Source: a virus (lineage: Duplodnaviria > Caudoviricetes). Taken from it: DNA of 64,000 nucleotides. The translations under genes were made by a program, and so were the position numbers. A model generated the notes under the pieces. It was not told the origin of the DNA and searched no databases. It worked only from the letters and a program-made list of their open reading frames with translations. Location: the IMG/VR virus record IMGVR_UViG_3300028483_000002, positions 9,580-73,579 of that record; one strand, 5' to 3'. Positions 2,393 to 62,294 of the stretch are shown here, one piece after another (position 1 is the stretch's first letter; every line of letters starts with the position of its first letter).

Positions 2393-4132
2393 TTAAATTT
2401 CAACAGTTGAAGTGTAAACGTGATTTACTGCTGTAATAAATACAAAATTAACCGGAGCTGTTAGATAACGTGAATAAGTAAGATATATCTTATCCCCATC
2501 AATTCTGCATTTTATATTCCAAACATTGTCATTTGAATCATTTGGAACAATATAACCATTCAAAGCCCATTCTTTTGCTCTATCAATCAGTGTTTTTATT
2601 GCTTCATTTGTTGAAACTCCTGAACCACCAATAATAGGAATAAATTGAGCTCTTAAATCACGATTCATAAATAAATCTTCACGAACCATAGAACGTTCAT
2701 TATTGATTAAGTCATCCCCTTGGAATGTAGTAACCGAACGAACACAAATATATTCAGCCAAATTCTCTGGATTAGGATTACATACTGTAATACCAGCACG
2801 AATTAAAGAAGTTATGTTAGGAATATCCCGAATTTTTCCAAACGAAAGTACATTAAGAGTTTTGAATGTTAATGGCGTTGAAGGCGACATAGCGCTCTCC
2901 ATAGCTGCTAACATTACTCCTAACCTAGCACCTGTAATTGTTTCTATTTTTCCAGAAATGGCATTTGTTTTAGTTGCATTGTCAATTACATACGATACTA
3001 ATTTATTATTCAAACCTTGTGCTGTATTAATACCATCTGTATCAGCCATACCAATTCCGCCACCAAGGATAGCTGTTCGTTCTTTTCTATTAATAGTAGA
3101 ACTCATTGATGTACAATGTGAAGAAATCAAAGACAGAACACTAGCATCTGTAGATGGAGTAGAAATTATCTGAATATCTTCTACTTCAAGGGCTTTCAAT
3201 GCTTGTTGCCATTGTGTGATGGTGTAAGAACCAATTGTTCCCCCTGTAAAGTAAATGTAACTCTCTGTATTATCAGGAACTTGTCTTGTTGTTGTTTCAA
3301 GAATTTCTAAACCACCAATTAACGACATCTTGTTCAAAGCATTAATGAATGCATCAAAGTTAGCATAAAGTTGTAAACCATTGTCAATATCAATAGGTGA
3401 ATTAGTAATTGTATCAAGTTTATATGATGATAAATCAACATCATCTGCAATTGCTTGATATGAATTAGAGTTATTGATAGCTGATACAAGAGAATCCAAT
3501 GTGTCAAAATCTTCAAAACTTAAAGTTAATTCATCAATAGCAGTTGGCTCACTTCCTTCTTCTGGAATTGATTCAGCAACAAAAGAAATAGAATTATTGT
3601 TGATAGTAACAGTTGCATTCTGTCCTTCACCATAGTAAACAACATTCATTGCTTTTTTTACAATGTTATCTACTTCTTCTTGAATTTCTTTGTACACTAA
3701 ATTAATTTTTTTTGAATTTTGTGCTGTTCCATCACTAATCATAATTTTTAGTTGATTAGTGTGAACTCCGTAATCCCAAGATTTAATTTCAATTGTTGGA
3801 ATACTTCCACTTTGCAATGTTACTGATGATTGTGTACCATCATTTACACGCATCGCAAAAACTCTCTGTGGAATATAAACATTTGAAGCTGTAAAAGCAT
3901 CCCCTATAGCGTCCAAAAGTTCTCCACCTACAAGAGCCTCTTGTGCAGATGCAACACCATCGAATTCTAACAATTCAAAAGGTTTTCCACCGTTTGATTT
4001 ACCAAGAATTACCATATTGCCTGCTGAAACACCACTAGGGCTAGATGTATTATAACTTCTTGAATAAGACCCTGGCACCCAATGTTCTGTTCTTTGGCCA
4101 CCACTCTCAAAAATTGCTGGACCTACACCCAT
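2393..4132 (-). CDS. Tail sheath protein (contractile tail)
   Basis: 579 aa. N-terminal HWVPGSYSR...MVILGKSNGGKP, ALKALEVEDIQII, and C-terminal VTTFQGDD..NERSMVRE..F...APVNFVFIT are sheath-type motifs. Confidence 0.9.
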   Translation of the reverse strand: MGVGPAIFESGGQRTEHWVPGSYSRSYNTSSPSGVSAGNMVILGKSNGGKPFELLEFDGVASAQEALVGGELLDAIGDAFTASNVYIPQRVFAMRVNDGTQSSVTLQSGSIPTIEIKSWDYGVHTNQLKIMISDGTAQNSKKINLVYKEIQEEVDNIVKKAMNVVYYGEGQNATVTINNNSISFVAESIPEEGSEPTAIDELTLSFEDFDTLDSLVSAINNSNSYQAIADDVDLSSYKLDTITNSPIDIDNGLQLYANFDAFINALNKMSLIGGLEILETTTRQVPDNTESYIYFTGGTIGSYTITQWQQALKALEVEDIQIISTPSTDASVLSLISSHCTSMSSTINRKERTAILGGGIGMADTDGINTAQGLNNKLVSYVIDNATKTNAISGKIETITGARLGVMLAAMESAMSPSTPLTFKTLNVLSFGKIRDIPNITSLIRAGITVCNPNPENLAEYICVRSVTTFQGDDLINNERSMVREDLFMNRDLRAQFIPIIGGSGVSTNEAIKTLIDRAKEWALNGYIVPNDSNDNVWNIKCRIDGDKIYLTYSRYLTAPVNFVFITAVNHVYTSTVEI

Positions 4133-9309: not shown

Positions 9310-9615
9310 TTATTTTTTAAGACTGTAACCTGGTATAGTTAAAAGTCTTTTTGCTTCAACTTCTGTAACTTCACACAATCCTTTATCATTAAAAGTAATA
9401 GTTCTAGTTGGTAAAACTACAGATTTGTTAATAAGAGATTTGTTGAAAACTAATACATTTCCACTTCCATTTTTAACAGAAGTGTTTTCTTGTTGTTCAT
9501 CAGTTTCCACAACTTCTTCTGTTGTTTCAACTATAATTCCTAATTCCTCTACTGTTTCATTTTTTTCAACAGTAGAGGTTGTGTTTGCATTTGCTGATCT
9601 AGCCATATAACACAA
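9310..9615 (-). CDS. Small hypothetical (possible capsid-associated) protein
   Basis: Directly after the major capsid gene, with an SD sequence. Confidence 0.4.
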   Translation of the reverse strand: MCYMARSANANTTSTVEKNETVEELGIIVETTEEVVETDEQQENTSVKNGSGNVLVFNKSLINKSVVLPTRTITFNDKGLCEVTEVEAKRLLTIPGYSLKK

Positions 9616-23457: not shown

Positions 23458-24978
23458 TTACCTCTTAATTGCATTATATTCCATTTTTGCAAGTTGTACA
23501 ATCCTTTTACTAAATGGGCTTGCGTTTTCGCCATATTGGTATACATCAGCAAAGGCTTCTGCAAATAGTTCCATATCAGTTTCTTCTGCATAATCAGAAA
23601 TAGTAAGTTTAGCATCTTCATAAGACATACCATTTAATTGAGTTTGTCGTATTTGTTCGTATGCTTTTTTACAAATTTCTACATCAGAATACATTCCATT
23701 ATTTTTTAATAATGCTGCTAAAACATGAGCTCCTTCATGATACCCAAATGATTCTGCATTTAATTGCTCATCCCCTGCATGAAAATATATATTCTTATCT
23801 TCCTCTTTTTTTGTTCCATCTTCAATTATAAACTTAGATCCAAAACTTATTTCTATTGGTTTTTCATTAATAAATTGAACACACATTATACAATTTTCTC
23901 TCGTAATTCCAATTCTTGGGATTAATTTTTGAACTAAAGGAAACTCATCAAGAAATTCAAGTAACCCAATAGAACATTTTTTCGTATCTTCAAACATTGC
24001 TCTTTTTTTTAAGTCGTCAGAAACTTCAATGCCATATTTATTTACTATATTTTCATAATCATCAAAGTTTCTTGCTTTATTTAATATATTTTTAGAAGTA
24101 TCTCTTTTATTATATTCTTTATGATAATTTTTAAATAAATCAATTCTTTTTTCAATATAGTTTGCTGCATTTACTACCTTTTTATTAGGAATCCCTTTTG
24201 ATATTAAAAATTCTGAAACCCTTTCAATAACATTTTCTGTCGTAACATCTTTGTTTAATATTTTTCGTAATACAGTTTTATATTCTTTTTGAACTAGTTT
24301 ATCCCCAATAAATAATTTAAAATAATTTTGTATAGATTTATTGTTTCCTTTTAGTACACCTTGGTTTGGGAATTTTATAACACTGGTAATAAAATTTTCT
24401 CTCTCTTTAGAAATATCAGAAATATTATTAAAAGTAGTTTTGCTAGTATTAAGTTTAGATTTACGTTCATTCACAGCATTTTTTAATTCTTCTACAATCG
24501 GCAGTAATTTACCATCGCTATCCATAAATCTATTTGTATTTTCCATGACAAGTTGCAATAATTCATCAATACTTTTTGCATTTTCAATTTTCTTCTTAAT
24601 AATTGCAATTGATTGATTTGCTCCCCTAGAATGCACATCATAGATTTTTCGCCATTTTCCAGGAGCAATTTTTCTGTATTTATGCCCTTTCCACTCTCTA
24701 ACAGTTCCTATACCATATCCCCTAGATTTATTAATGCTATATTCAGTTAAAAATGTACGAGCCATTGAATTATCATAATCTTCAATCGCTTTACTAATTA
24801 TCTTTTCTTCTCTTACTTCACTTTCTTCTAAGATTTTTAACAACTCTTTTTTAAAGTGATTCAAAATCCTATTTGAATGTTTGTTTATTAAATTGTCATA
24901 AACACTTTTCTTTACTGTAATCATTTCATACCCCACCTTAAAATTGTTTACAATAATTCCGGGAATACTCTTACCCAT
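23458..24978 (-). CDS. Putative capsid cargo protein with C-terminal zincin metallopeptidase (toxin-like); likely ATG 24924
   Basis: MITVKKSV leader, KSRGYGIGTVREWKG module, GYHEGAH plus ISDYAEETDMELFAEAF. Confidence 0.65.
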   Translation of the reverse strand: MGKSIPGIIVNNFKVGYEMITVKKSVYDNLINKHSNRILNHFKKELLKILEESEVREEKIISKAIEDYDNSMARTFLTEYSINKSRGYGIGTVREWKGHKYRKIAPGKWRKIYDVHSRGANQSIAIIKKKIENAKSIDELLQLVMENTNRFMDSDGKLLPIVEELKNAVNERKSKLNTSKTTFNNISDISKERENFITSVIKFPNQGVLKGNNKSIQNYFKLFIGDKLVQKEYKTVLRKILNKDVTTENVIERVSEFLISKGIPNKKVVNAANYIEKRIDLFKNYHKEYNKRDTSKNILNKARNFDDYENIVNKYGIEVSDDLKKRAMFEDTKKCSIGLLEFLDEFPLVQKLIPRIGITRENCIMCVQFINEKPIEISFGSKFIIEDGTKKEEDKNIYFHAGDEQLNAESFGYHEGAHVLAALLKNNGMYSDVEICKKAYEQIRQTQLNGMSYEDAKLTISDYAEETDMELFAEAFADVYQYGENASPFSKRIVQLAKMEYNAIKR

Positions 24979-27692
24979 GAACCTCTACACCACGGATGAA
25001 CAGTTGCAATTGGAGCATCACCATCCAATTTGCCTTCCCATATCGCATATTTTGCATAAGGATCTTTTATTCTTTCGTTTGGCAATGGAACATCACTCCA
25101 CAATGCAATAGCACCTTTTAATTTTTGGCACTTTTTACAGGTGTTGTCATCTAACACTTCATAGCGTTCAAAATATACCTTTTCTTCTGGTTTGGTGTTG
25201 TACACTTCTTCTTTGATATAAGCTGTATTTGTTGCAATTTGTAATTCTGTATCAGCGATTCGTTGCATATCCCTATTCAAACTTGCGCATTTATCAAATA
25301 AGTTTTGAGCCACAACCGACTTGCTTGATTTGTCTCTTACACCATCAATTATTATTTGTTGGATATTATTTCTCATATCATCTTTAACACGTGTAACTCT
25401 TTGAGTTGCAGAATCAATTGCAACTTGAATTCTTGCAGCCCTTTCTCTAGTGATACTTTCCCCAAAAACATCTTTTATGTTTTTAACACTCTCACTTATC
25501 CAATCAACATCTTTTCTTTTTATTTTTAATTCAGACAGGTGCATTTTTTTTATTGCAGATAAAGAATTTGTTTTACTTAATCGTTCCAATATAGCACCTA
25601 ATGCTTCGCCACTCAGAACAATTTTTTCACCAATACCAGAATAATTACGATTTAGAAACTTTTCTAATTCTGTAATAAAACGTTGCCATTCTTTAGTTGA
25701 TATTGGTTTACCATTTTCAGGATTGTAAATAACCTTACCTTTCCATTTCAATTTAGCTTTACTTACAATTCTTATATCAGGTAAATCAAAATAAGAAATC
25801 ACAAAATTATAAATTGCTAAAGTTTTTTGAGATAATTCTCTAAACAATTTATCTGTCAGTTCTTCTTCGGCCTTGTACAAAAACTTTTCACCTTGTACAG
25901 TTTTCATGTTTGTATCTAAAGACAATGAAACTTTATGCAGAGCTTTTTCAATTTTTTCTTTGTCAAAATTTGTAAATCTCAAATATAAATTATCATATCT
26001 TGTAGATTTATTATCAGATTGAATATGTTTAATTACAAAAGGTTTATTTTCGTAAATTGCATTAAGAGCCTTTTCTAATTGTTCATACTTTTTTTGTTTG
26101 TTATTTTCTGTAATATCAGTTATACAAACATCAAAGGATTTATGTATTCTACTACCTTGTTTTGAGAATACAAAAGACTTAAATTGTTCTACAGTTAAAG
26201 TTTCCATACTTCCAAAAAATCCTGGTCTATCATATTGTTTCATATATGCTTTTTTTGCTGCTTCTGCATTTTCAAAACACAACATACATTTATCTTCATC
26301 GTATTTATGAGTAACAGGATTGTTTTGATGAATTACATAAACTTTTTTTGCGTTTTTATCAGGACCAATATAACAATCTACAAAGTCTGAATCAGTCCCT
26401 ACAGTTCCCCTAATATATCCATAATCATAGTGCATTAAAGTTTTCCACTTATGCCCATCTGAATCAACACCACTTCTATAAGTTCCTTTTTTATTTTCAA
26501 TGGAAATATCCATGCCATAAAGTTTAGTTCTACCCTGTAATTTATGGCCGGAATAAGTTAAAGATTTTGTTAAAGCCTTATATGCTTTGTACGCAATTAC
26601 ATTTTCTACATCTTGATGCAATTGTTCTTCTGCTACAAACCTTGTCAATTTATCATCATACTTCTGAATAACAGAATCATAATTTAAGCCTTTTTTATCA
26701 CAAAGATGATGTAATTCTACTTTCCAATCAGTGAATAATGATTTTGTAACATTTTTACTTGACAAATTATTACAATGCACTATATTAATAGATGGAGATA
26801 GACTACAATCCGGTTGTAGTTGTAACGCTTTATTAAGCTGTCTCCCCTTAAATCCCTTGCTATTTTGCAAGGGATATTTTTTTAACAAAAGTTCTACAGA
26901 GTAGACTAACTTACCTGTAATTTTATATTCCTTAATTGTAATATATGCCATTCCTTTTCTTGTAGATAATTGAATAGGTATATTTCCTCTGTAAATAGAT
27001 TCTACGTTGTCATCACCTTTCCTATCTGGATATTTCTTAAAGTTTTCAACATTTTCAACAAGTTCTTTTATCTTTGATGCCGCTTCAAAATGCTCTTTTG
27101 TTGAAAAACCATTTAGAACAGATTTATTTATAGCTTTATCACAAGATAATTTATCAATAGATTTTTGAGAAAATCTAAATGTTAAATCTTTATTATGAAA
27201 GTTAGTCTGTTTATATTTTACCATTTCTTTCTTAAATGTATTTCTAAGCTCTGTTCTTAAAAGATATTCATTATGATCAATTTTTAATACTTTCCAAGCC
27301 GGAATTTTTTCATTTTCATTTTCTTTGTTTATAAAAATATAATCGTGAGAACCATTTATATAATATTCATATAAATCATACTTAGTCTTATCTAACTTAA
27401 ATTTTATTGGTTTTTGTTTTTCATCGGAAAGACCCTTTAATTTTTTTATTCTTATTCCATAAACATCAGCATCATATTCATATACCCAATGCCCATTTAC
27501 CCATCTTTTATTACGATATTTATGTGATTTTTGTATTTCTTTATCATTTTCAGAATATAAGTCCGATTTTTGCAGATTTTCTGCAAATTCGTCATTTAAA
27601 TTATCTTTTTTTTCATTTCTAACTTGCTTATAACTTTCTAATTTCTTTTTAATTTCTTCTGCAACAGATTTTTCAATTACTATTTTTCCCAT
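24948..27692 (-). CDS. MuF-family head morphogenesis protein fused to LPD3/BECR-like and inorganic-pyrophosphatase-like polyvalent domains
   Basis: C-terminal MuF motifs RIADTE...DDNTCKKCQKLKG...HPWCRG; InPase-like ISIENKKGTYRSG...HYDYGYIRGTVGTDSDFVDCYIG...YDEDKCML; LPD3-like KEHFEAASKIKELVEN...YPDRKGDDNV...AYITIKE...LVYSVEL. Confidence 0.75.
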   Translation of the reverse strand: MGKIVIEKSVAEEIKKKLESYKQVRNEKKDNLNDEFAENLQKSDLYSENDKEIQKSHKYRNKRWVNGHWVYEYDADVYGIRIKKLKGLSDEKQKPIKFKLDKTKYDLYEYYINGSHDYIFINKENENEKIPAWKVLKIDHNEYLLRTELRNTFKKEMVKYKQTNFHNKDLTFRFSQKSIDKLSCDKAINKSVLNGFSTKEHFEAASKIKELVENVENFKKYPDRKGDDNVESIYRGNIPIQLSTRKGMAYITIKEYKITGKLVYSVELLLKKYPLQNSKGFKGRQLNKALQLQPDCSLSPSINIVHCNNLSSKNVTKSLFTDWKVELHHLCDKKGLNYDSVIQKYDDKLTRFVAEEQLHQDVENVIAYKAYKALTKSLTYSGHKLQGRTKLYGMDISIENKKGTYRSGVDSDGHKWKTLMHYDYGYIRGTVGTDSDFVDCYIGPDKNAKKVYVIHQNNPVTHKYDEDKCMLCFENAEAAKKAYMKQYDRPGFFGSMETLTVEQFKSFVFSKQGSRIHKSFDVCITDITENNKQKKYEQLEKALNAIYENKPFVIKHIQSDNKSTRYDNLYLRFTNFDKEKIEKALHKVSLSLDTNMKTVQGEKFLYKAEEELTDKLFRELSQKTLAIYNFVISYFDLPDIRIVSKAKLKWKGKVIYNPENGKPISTKEWQRFITELEKFLNRNYSGIGEKIVLSGEALGAILERLSKTNSLSAIKKMHLSELKIKRKDVDWISESVKNIKDVFGESITRERAARIQVAIDSATQRVTRVKDDMRNNIQQIIIDGVRDKSSKSVVAQNLFDKCASLNRDMQRIADTELQIATNTAYIKEEVYNTKPEEKVYFERYEVLDDNTCKKCQKLKGAIALWSDVPLPNERIKDPYAKYAIWEGKLDGDAPIATVHPWCRGSWVRVFPELL
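26759..26883 (+). ncRNA. Putative antisense sRNA (promoter 26759-26786, RNA about 26791-26883) inside the MuF gene
   Basis: TTGACA-16-TATATT; GGAGATAG/CTGTCTCC closing stem with two inner hairpins; terminator ATCCCTTGC/GCAAGGGAT followed by a T tract. Confidence 0.55.
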
Positions 27693-28097: not shown

Positions 28098-28514
28098 TTA
28101 CATTTTGTGTCCATATTCAACTCCCCCTAATTGATTTGCCCAATTTTCAGGAAAGCCGCTGTAATACCAAACATCTCGCTGTGAATAAGTCCATTTTTTA
28201 TGAAACAATCTATCAAATATATTTCTTGCAACAGACGGAATTCCAACAATTAATAAATATAACCAACCTAACTTTTTGGATTGTAAAGAATACCCATATT
28301 CGTGTCTTAACGTGTTGTATAAATCCCCTGAAGAATAGTTAGAATCAATAATAATGTACTGCCCTAAACTTACCCCAAAATCAAAAAAATTATTAATTGA
28401 ATAACATATTATTCCTGATATTTCATGTTTTTTACCAAACAAAGATAAAACAAAACCTAAAATATTTTGGGGAAGTTGCCACACATACAAAACGAAAGCG
28501 ATTAAATATTTCAT
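28098..28514 (-). CDS. Membrane protein with a degenerate zincin motif
   Basis: WQLPQN..G, SLG.YI, LRHEYGYSLQS..LGWLYLLIVGIPS, YYSGFPENWANQLG. Confidence 0.55.
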   Translation of the reverse strand: MKYLIAFVLYVWQLPQNILGFVLSLFGKKHEISGIICYSINNFFDFGVSLGQYIIIDSNYSSGDLYNTLRHEYGYSLQSKKLGWLYLLIVGIPSVARNIFDRLFHKKWTYSQRDVWYYSGFPENWANQLGGVEYGHKM

Positions 28515-61514: not shown

Positions 61515-61669
61515 TTGACAAATATTTATTCTATCTGTAAACTATAGATGGTGATAGGAACGGTTTCAGTATCTACTATCGGACACACCAAGAAGTTGTC
61601 AATTAAAACTCCCTAGAAGGATCGGATATTGCACTTAACTGTGCCTCTATCGGGGCGGGAGTTTTTTTT
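61515..61669 (+). ncRNA. Putative convergent antisense sRNA (promoter 61515-61543, RNA about 61547-61669)
   Basis: TTGACA-17-TAAACT; 5' hairpin GATGGTGATA/TATCTACTATC; terminator AAAACTCCC/GGGAGTTTT followed by a T tract. Confidence 0.65.
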
Positions 61670-62294
61670 GTTTTAAAACCTTACACTTGCCTTTGTATTC
61701 AATAATTACATAACCATTCCTATTATCTTTTTTTATTTCATCTTTTAATTTTTTATACTTGTTATAAGTTATTTCACCCTTAATAGAAATGAAACAACTT
61801 GGAGCTTGTTTTTTTGTTTCATTAAATCTTGTTATTAGTTTATGTTCCCCAGTATTTTTTATTTCCATAAAATCTCTATCATTAAATAATTTATAAAAAA
61901 TATCAGCCTTTTTGTTATTAGAATAACTTTCTCTTAATAAATAAACATCAAAACCTAACATCTTTATTTTTTTACAAGTTTCTACTTCATCTTTACATCT
62001 TCCTTCTCTTACAGCATCTATTTTTCCAACAGAAACTTTTATACCTTCAAAATCTTCATAAGTTTCTTTTTCTAAATAATCTAAAAGTAATTCTCTATCT
62101 TTTTCAGATAATTCCATTATCCCTTTTTCTGTAAATCTTCCCTTATCATCTCTCGGATGCACAGCAGAATTAAATCCTTTTTGTACAGAATCTTCTTCAT
62201 GATTAAAAATTACATATATTTTAGGTTTATAATTCAACTTTTCCATTAGCTCATCATAAACTGATTTTCTTATTACTAATTTTACTTTACTCAT
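61647..62294 (-). CDS. Putative capsid cargo protein with HPRD motif and CdiA-C-like (PD-D/ExK tRNase-type) domain
   Basis: MSKVKLVIRKSVYDEL leader; QKGFNSAVHPRDDKGRFT; E.ETCKKI..LGFDVYLLRE...KKADI...MEIKN...KKQA..CFI. Confidence 0.55.
   Translation of the reverse strand: MSKVKLVIRKSVYDELMEKLNYKPKIYVIFNHEEDSVQKGFNSAVHPRDDKGRFTEKGIMELSEKDRELLLDYLEKETYEDFEGIKVSVGKIDAVREGRCKDEVETCKKIKMLGFDVYLLRESYSNNKKADIFYKLFNDRDFMEIKNTGEHKLITRFNETKKQAPSCFISIKGEITYNKYKKLKDEIKKDNRNGYVIIEYKGKCKVLKQKKLPPR

Follow-up and report, generated by a model that had tools for sequence, protein, structure and literature searches.

A predicted small RNA gene nested in the linker of a phage MuF polyvalent protein, and its relatives with exchangeable bodies

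Introduction

Can the linker of a phage head protein hold, on its opposite strand, a complete gene? This question is raised by a 64,000-nucleotide stretch of DNA, hereafter the window, which covers positions 9,580 to 73,579 of the IMG/VR virus record IMGVR_UViG_3300028483_000002 (Duplodnaviria; Caudoviricetes), a record of 73.6 kb with nearly all its genes on the minus strand. One of these genes (24948..27692, minus strand; homologues P0002-P0034) encodes a 914-amino-acid (aa) polyvalent head protein of LPD3-InPase-MuF type, with LPD3 at aa 147-257, InPase at aa 386-507 and Mu_F at aa 775-870. A first-pass annotation, made from the letters alone, had proposed that a full antisense transcription unit lies inside this gene at 26759-26883 on the plus strand, comprising a promoter, an RNA of about 90 nt with several stems, and a 9-bp terminator with a U tract. 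Judged from the sequence comparisons described below, this cassette is very probably an autonomous small-RNA gene, and it belongs to a predicted family that has no counterpart in Rfam.

Promoter, body and terminator of the nested RNA gene

Every element of the proposed unit is present in the sequence. The promoter on the plus strand consists of a -35 element TTGACA (26759-26764), a spacer of 16 nt and a -10 hexamer TATATT (26781-26786), as expected for sigma-70-type promoters with -35 and -10 elements spaced by 16-18 nt; it scores 11/12 to the consensus and was the top promoter match on both strands in a scan of 20-34 kb. The -35 element is preceded by a T-rich upstream block, ACATTTTTAC, and the two together (26749..26764, plus strand) lie opposite the minus-strand codons for ..L-S-S-K-N-V.. 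of the linker. We infer that transcription starts at approximately 26788-26793.

The predicted transcript of about 90 nt is composed of a three-way junction and a terminator. Its body (26793..26850, plus strand), which we call type B, begins with the 5' motif GATGGAGATAG and is closed by an outer stem between GGAGATA (26794-26800) and TGTCTCC (26839-26845), one G-U pair included; the junction carries a first hairpin of 9 bp, two of them G-U (26801-26809 with 26813-26821), and a second GCTT/AAGC hairpin (26827-30 with 26835-38). The intrinsic terminator ATCCCTTGC/GCAAGGGAT (26852..26883, plus strand) has a G+C-rich 9-bp stem with arms at 26852-26860 and 26867-26875, a 6-nt loop and an immediate tract of seven T residues (26877-26883), and it is the longest stem and the top terminator-like site on both strands of the 14 kb scanned (20-34 kb). 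The segment 26793-26885 folds at -33.8 kcal/mol; dinucleotide shuffles gave -15.6 +/- 2.6 kcal/mol (z = -6.96), and none of 200 folded as well.

The overlapping protein segment had been described as a linker, and this agrees with the domain map: the whole RNA unit lies inside the minus-strand open reading frame (ORF), between domains, and the linker with its in-frame cassette (26742..26885, minus strand) corresponds to aa 270-317, having KKY on one side and TKSL on the other. The KKY edge of the window protein is replaced by KKSL in most relatives. In a comparison of the window protein with 36 related IMG/VR loci by tblastn, homology to other proteins breaks off at aa 310, exactly where the -35 element lies. 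On the minus strand, the terminator region encodes K-K-Y-P-L-Q-N-S-K-G, with the T run read as Lys-Lys; across the cassettes, the T tract is likewise Lys-Lys, the stem base Ser, and the -35 element Leu-Ser-Ser. The terminator stem is read as S/Y-L/P-L..K/R-D/G, and the body would serve as a spacer tolerant of sequence.

The K-S-L tripeptide recurs at each module junction of the MuF polyvalent proteins P0002-P0034 in the form x-K-S-L (INKSLFTDW, VQKSLFTDW, ALTKSLTYSG). The cassette is flanked by two K-S-L sites, and junctions of the window protein occur at aa 317-319 and 376-378. In three homologues (P0031, P0032 and P0034), the segment missing relative to the window protein is precisely the 59 aa between its two TKSL repeats. 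From this sequence pattern, the junctions are candidate sites of a maturation protease and/or candidate recombination points; if they are cut by a protease, the linker peptide would be either excised or kept as a tail.

A family of related cassettes

In a nucleotide search, two related loci (L012 and L009) proved to carry the promoter block, about 94% identical and again within the MuF ORF; downstream of it, both have different structured RNAs with T runs at their ends. When the linker region was used as a protein query, 33 homologues were obtained, 19 of which carry an insert of about 45 aa bounded by KKSL and SSKNVTKSL; we took the DNA for 12 of these 19, and five genome contigs gave further cassettes. 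In total, approximately 20 distinct cassettes of one plan (counted as distinct sequences) were found in MuF genes from independent assemblies.

The common plan starts with ACATTTTTAC-TTGAC(A/T), followed after 16-17 nt by a -10 hexamer, and the upstream block with its -35 element is conserved in all embedded cassettes. The -10 hexamer varies (TATATT, TATTAT, TAAACT, TATTCT, TAATAT, TAGACT, TACTAT) and conforms to TAnnnT at 16-17 nt in all cassettes except L064 and L078, where it is looser. The plan ends with a body of 60-70 nt, a hairpin on an ATCC..GGAT base and a run of T6-8; no clear terminator with T6 or more was found in L009, L046, L048, L002 and L056, and L012 and L053 have a different stem ahead of the T run. 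Between the constant promoter and terminator, the bodies come as exchangeable types (A, B, C, D and others), which are also met in free-standing genes. The type B body of the window also occurs in L043/L044/L052 and in L045, with 2-4 substitutions that are unpaired or preserve pairing through G-U.

The hosts of these phages are indicated by several clues. A Treponemataceae genome holds a nearly identical stretch, TTTTTTTACTTGACAAATTAT, upstream of an AAGGAG motif, so that the promoter looks like a host promoter. Four of the five genome contigs with a MuF protein, together with the named homologues of a second window protein, P0035 (see below), come from metagenome-assembled genomes (MAGs) of Treponema or Spirochaetaceae, in which phage contigs can be mis-binned. 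The phages that carry the RNA family therefore probably infect rumen Treponema. The homologue P0023 is labelled as a Methanobrevibacter MAG, probably by a binning error, because all other host clues point to Treponema. Among 401 sampled Treponemataceae genomes, type A is present in four and type B in none. Another Treponemataceae locus (L082; G265:C11, ~23750-23900) has a free-standing TTTACA-17-TATAAT promoter and an RNA of about 95 nt, whose terminator is 85% identical to the type B terminator; in this unit, the 3' module of the family may have a relative in the host.

Exact-pattern scans of IMG/VR gave no match to the type B body, only the two known loci and one probable chance match for the promoter block, and four matches, none of them similar to the family RNA, for the type A core. 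A blastn search of phage GenBank with the whole MuF gene found no match, and a metagenome scan gave two loci only.

Evidence for selection on the RNA

Because the cassette is translated on the other strand, conservation of its sequence might reflect the protein, and the first-pass annotation had itself named conservation beyond coding constraint as one test of the proposal. Such conservation was found in three forms: covariation of paired positions, the use of one motif in two reading frames, and maintenance of the body in non-coding contexts.

Among nine RNAs of types A and C, the terminator switches between CG and UA, GC and AU, and UA and CG at three pairs, and the P1 stem switches between AU and GC at two pairs. 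In the terminator, a synonymous change of Leu TTG to CTG is matched by a Lys-to-Arg change (AAG to AGG) on the opposing arm. When 11 type A bodies were aligned, 97.7% of the cells were paired and three pairs were changed on both sides; the covariation score was reached by none of 500 shuffles, and slid controls were 20-63% paired. All one-sided pair changes in type A are GC to GU on the RNA strand.

Types A and B share a 5' motif, CTATC(A/T)CCATC in coding-strand letters, which type B linkers translate in phase 0, as L-S-P-S-I, and type A linkers in phase 1, as P-I-T-I-Y; being read in two frames, it must be conserved as a nucleotide sequence and not as a peptide. Moreover, type A bodies remain 80-93% identical whether they lie within MuF linkers (L049-51, L055, L061-62), make up the C-terminal tail of a MuF ORF (L076) or stand free (the window at 61.5 kb, L075, L077, L078), three different contexts with respect to coding. 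The free-standing copies retain promoter-like -35 and -10 elements and the hairpin with its T run, with no ORF running through them.

Fourteen of 19 RNAs fold better on the RNA strand than on its complement. Among the exceptions, type C, L012 and L078 have a slightly more stable fold on the complement. Within type B, the comparison is uninformative, the cassette and its coding flank being equally conserved, at about 96% in both. The RNA-level evidence therefore comes from types A and C, and type B is included by its shared architecture and by its match to the covariance model described below. Taking these comparisons together, we consider it very probable that the cassette is a real RNA gene under selection. 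An Rfam scan of the whole window at gathering thresholds returned only a tRNA, and permissive scans of both window RNAs matched no family (best 21.6 bits vs a threshold of 52).

A second RNA at 61.5 kb and the exchange of bodies

The first-pass annotation had noticed that the 5' end of the nested RNA matches an RNA at 61547, and 13 of the 14 bases are indeed identical. A covariance model (R1) built from types A and C also joins the two RNAs, finding exactly two loci in the window: 61544-61669 with 77 bits, and 26788-26880 with 27 bits (E ~4e-4), matched over the full length of the model. The locus at 61.5 kb is a free-standing member with a type A body (61515..61669, plus strand), having TTGACA at 61515-61520 and TAAACT at 61538-61543; its RNA, at ~61546-61669, includes a long terminator domain and is convergent with the P0035 gene, whose 3' end it overlaps by about 23 nt (61647-61669).

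P0035 (215 aa; 61647..62294, minus strand) gave no Pfam match. The alignment of its family shows E122, D131, E144 and K146 to be conserved, the last two as E144-x-K146, and this pattern is PD-(D/E)xK-like and resembles that of CdiA_C. A relative in the same arrangement (L075), 18% identical to P0035, matches Pfam CdiA_C at E 1.3e-4, which is below the curated cut-off; in these two distantly related cases, a free-standing RNA is convergent with a CdiA_C-like gene and meets it at its 3' end. The type A copies of L077 and L078 adjoin AAA_14-DUF4143 ATPase genes.

The clearest view of body exchange is given by L066/L065, which come from the same phage contig, a contig with a type C cassette in its MuF gene. 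This phage is near-identical to that of the window: compared with window positions 61515-61669, the neighbouring P0035 gene is 95% identical, and the -35 element and the long terminator domain are virtually identical. In place of the approximately 80 nt between these two elements, however, it has about 125 nt of unrelated sequence (type D). This swap indicates that phages mix body types between the two loci and that the constant ends serve as handles for recombination. The type D body alone (L066:2126-2296, minus strand) has no significant fold (z = +0.4).

Several further observations concern these loci. P0035 has an N-terminal K-S-V leader, as do other putative cargo proteins. Its homologue P0036 has lost the stop codon, so that the ORF extends by 15 codons into the RNA terminator domain, which looks like a first step towards embedding. 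In L076 (L076:1465-1591; Treponemataceae), the MuF ORF stops right after the cassette -35 element, so that the cassette forms its C-terminal tail, and an Eco57I/N6-methylase ORF begins at the cassette, overlapping it; the polyprotein appears to be split there. The L077 and L078 copies also lie among metabolic genes (adenine deaminase, nitroreductase), apparently outside any recognisable prophage.

Modules next to the cassettes

The cassette had been suggested to travel with a nuclease domain, and we have examined the modules that precede it. LPD3 precedes the type B cassette (38 bits, over the cut-off); the module before type A is weakly LPD3-like (E 0.002), and that before type C is LPD3-like as well. 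CdiA_C precedes the L064 cassette (31 bits, over the cut-off), with a weak CdiA_C match in L048. The cassette signature (the SSKNV motif) occurs in 19 homologues, and domain searches, made on about a third of them, gave the upstream module, where one could be named, as LPD3 or LPD3-like, CdiA_C-like, or MuF_C (in L012). It is missing from 14 proteins with a leader alone, an unrelated module or another domain order.

Relationships among these modules were also sought at the level of sequence and structure. An hhalign comparison of the upstream domain of types A/C with LPD3 gave a probability of 0.1, only a short KLxC..N..V....EH motif being common, and BLASTP found no similarity between P0035 and the N-terminal domains of P0011 and P0005. 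Sequence searches of the PDB with LPD3 and P0035 found nothing, and Foldseek gave no match at E <= 1e-3 for the models of either. For the predicted LPD3 model (pLDDT 87), the top rows of an exhaustive structure comparison include CdiA-CT toxins with Z scores of only 4.6-4.7, and RelE, ParE, MqsR and RegB appear in lower rows at Z 3.3-3.8.

The suggestion of joint travel is supported. The cassette is inherited with the upstream effector module, namely type B with LPD3, types A and C with LPD3-like modules, and others with CdiA_C-like modules; a strict pairing of one toxin with one RNA is contradicted by the body swap beside a 95%-identical nuclease-like gene, and a nuclease function of LPD3 is only hinted at by the models.

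Proposed function and rival explanations

The best overall explanation we can offer, tentatively, is a small RNA gene nested in the linker that would act as an antidote or modulator of the effector modules. We rank this explanation first because the position of the RNA matches that of the immunity gene in polymorphic-toxin loci. The host RNA polymerase would transcribe the RNA from the sigma-70-type promoter, independently of phage late transcription, and the RNA would act in trans, at the RNA level, on LPD3 / BECR-like and CdiA_C-like nuclease modules. It would fill the slot of a protein immunity gene, which cannot sit inside an ORF.

A number of observations weigh against this explanation. 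The body type beside a given protein is not fixed, as seen from the unrelated body in L066/L065, and type A adjoins an LPD3-like domain, CdiA_C-like genes and AAA_14-DUF4143 genes alike. The L012 cassette follows MuF_C, which is not a nuclease-like domain. The fold matches of LPD3 do not reach the level at which relatives can be told from common arrangements, and Iyer et al. 2017 (PMC5512222) list the function of LPD3 as elusive. Because of the body swap beside an unchanged P0035 and the MuF_C case, we regard the antidote role proper as possible and somewhat doubtful. A more specific form of it, in which the cassettes would be RNA immunity genes for effector domains that are packaged in the capsid and injected, is rather unlikely; here the antidote would be transcribed at once by the host polymerase with no need of translation, and, being antisense in a protease-excised linker, it would shuffle with its effector as one unit. 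Searches for trans targets with both RNAs by blastn-short against the 73.6 kb phage gave matches of 12-13 nt with chance E-values only, and pairing of the RNA with the MuF mRNA of its own locus, with G-U allowed, gave no position common between loci.

The cassettes could instead be moron-like, each encoding a trans-acting riboregulator of host or rival-phage genes with no functional tie to the neighbouring modules; the protease-delimited linker would then simply be a place that tolerates insertion, and bodies would be swapped by recombination at the constant promoter and terminator. The swap beside an unchanged neighbour gene, the occurrence of type A in several unrelated and partly chromosomal-looking neighbourhoods, the likeness of the promoter to a host promoter, and the A/U-rich spacer ahead of the terminator with a constant 3' module and a variable 5' part, as in many base-pairing small RNAs (sRNAs), are all consistent with such a regulator. 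The repeated position right after effector modules or nuclease-like genes would, however, be coincidence or linkage, and no candidate target was found in phage or MuF mRNAs, host genomes having been left outside this target search; we consider this possibility rather improbable. Silencing in cis is a less probable role: the RNA would pair with the MuF (or P0035) mRNA, leading to cleavage or to a ribosome block, and leaky expression of a harmful head protein would be kept off in lysogens. A cis-encoded RNA is by necessity perfectly complementary to the opposite mRNA, stem-loops are typical of antisense RNAs, and the 61.5 kb hairpin over the P0035 3' end, preceded by an A run and followed by a T run, may be a two-way terminator; precedents are OOP/cII (PMC5869508) and the RalR DNase with its RalA sRNA (PMC4041452). 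Yet one body is retained across contexts with unrelated sense transcripts, and this conserved, covarying body is antisense to no gene in the free-standing copies, which argues for a function beyond cis pairing, so that a pure cis-antisense role for the body is unlikely.

That there is no functional RNA at all, and that the features belong to the protein (protease sites SSKNVTKSL and KKSL, linkers for domain shuffling), with hairpins acting in the sense mRNA through ribosome pausing between domains or with promoter and terminator as by-products, we judge quite improbable. It would account for the exact coincidence of domain-shuffling homology breakpoints with the cassette ends, for 'KSL' at all junctions, for the better sense-strand fold of type C, and for P0004, which retains the promoter-block peptide without a recognisable upstream domain. 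Against it stand the free-standing copies, which keep promoter-like elements, body and hairpin with T run although no ORF passes through, and the single motif read in two frames; in addition, the -10 hexamers differ and are nearly all TAnnnT, the T tract directly follows the stem on the antisense strand only, and the GC-to-GU changes would become C-A mismatches in the sense mRNA. A programmed -1 frameshift in the MuF mRNA, giving a stand-alone LPD3 protein, has a negligible chance. Both the window and L047 have an in-phase slippery heptamer, A AAA AAA; in the window (26877-26890, minus-strand sense) it lies in the zero frame directly ahead of the hairpin, and a shift to the -1 frame would add the five codons for I-S-L-A-K before a stop. 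In known -1 frameshift signals, the spacer between heptamer and structure is about 5-9 nt. Here it is only 0-1 nt, and the site was rejected on this ground; L009 has an A4 run only, and the promoter, the body and the free-standing copies would be left unexplained. Slippage on the A7 run, transcriptional or translational, could still give some stand-alone LPD3 protein. A small-peptide reading was rejected as well: the AUG of AGAUGG opens a frame of 14-22 codons in some copies, and the peptide is not conserved, because the AUG is replaced by ACG in L051, L055, L062 and L075.

Comparison with known systems

Among known systems, the layout of the nested small RNA gene resembles that of the OOP RNA of phage lambda, which is antisense to the 3' end of cII and acts by pairing with the cII mRNA (PMC5869508). 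Both are short phage RNAs with their own promoter (constitutive in OOP) and intrinsic terminator, directed against the surrounding gene flow, and both overlap the end of a coding unit, a layout that the free-standing copy at 61.5 kb reproduces. Unlike OOP, which is one conserved RNA, the linker gene lies wholly inside an ORF and in frame and has exchangeable body types, and its body stays conserved in copies that face no gene on the other strand.

In type I toxin-antitoxin pairs with a convergent 3' overlap, such as txpA/RatA and bsrG/SR4 of Bacillus subtilis prophages, the RNA pairs with the toxin mRNA. A nuclease toxin with an sRNA antitoxin is known from the rac prophage, in which the RalR DNase has RalA (PMC4041452). 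As in type I systems, we have a prophage-borne small RNA on the 3' side of a toxin-coding unit, here a putative one, and complementarity to the partner mRNA is found trivially in a cis-encoded RNA; in contrast to them, where the toxins are separate genes and mostly small membrane peptides, the MuF module is part of a polyprotein, and no extra pairing site for the RNA was found in its own MuF mRNA. In type III systems (ToxIN, AvcID), the RNA consists of tandem repeats that precede the toxin gene on its own strand, and the toxin itself processes it. By analogy with these, the RNA could neutralise an enzyme toxin by direct binding; the RNAs described here, however, have no repeats and are antisense or convergent, and a type III system is ruled out by this absence of repeats and by the opposite orientation.

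Polymorphic toxins with immunity cassettes, MuF toxins among them, have been described by Zhang et al. 2012 (PMC3482391) and Jamet et al. 2017 (PMC5576092). The present host protein is likewise of the MuF family, and a toxin-like module and the next element are exchanged together at conserved junctions. In polymorphic toxins the immunity gene encodes a protein and follows a C-terminal toxin, whereas in the present protein the effector modules precede MuF on its N-terminal side, and what comes next is an RNA gene inside the ORF. The cassette also resembles phage morons in being an autonomous promoter-to-terminator unit in the late region that could be expressed in the prophage; morons lie between genes and code for proteins, whereas this unit lies within a gene and encodes an RNA.

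Novelty and significance

Phages with antisense RNAs are known already, as are nested genes. What appears to be new is a family of promoter-to-terminator RNA genes placed in frame in the linkers of multi-domain virion proteins, and the occurrence of the same RNAs as free-standing genes, with bodies swapped like alleles. We found no description of RNA genes nested in phage polyprotein linkers: there is no Rfam family for them, and the polyvalent-protein paper that defined LPD3 and InPase (PMC5512222) mentions neither linker RNAs nor antisense units.

The cassettes show a route by which dual coding can be tolerated, the U tract being read as Lys-Lys, the stem as Ser-Leu..Lys-Asp and the -35 element as Leu-Ser-Ser. 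They also give a warning for annotation, because 'linkers' of phage polyproteins can conceal genes, and they are candidates for RNA-based control of injected effectors in phages of rumen spirochaetes. If the RNA immunity explanation were true, they would represent a new kind of toxin-immunity pairing and a systematic overprinting of RNA genes on a protein linker.

Other features of the MuF locus

The InPase domain is split by about 1 kb in L002, L003-L005, L008, L011 and L012 (between query residues 445 and 439). The corresponding insert in P0027 matches Intein_splicing and, weakly, LAGLIDADG, so the pyrophosphatase-like domain contains an intein that carries a homing endonuclease.

Directly upstream of the MuF gene, many relatives have a small ORF of their own, 106-248 aa long and separate from it. 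It resembles the window LPD3 region by tblastn in L013, L012, L009, L002 and L007 (about 2900-3366) and gives a weak LPD3 Pfam match in L048, L050 and L062. The window has a 138-aa ORF (28098..28514) at the same position upstream of its MuF gene.

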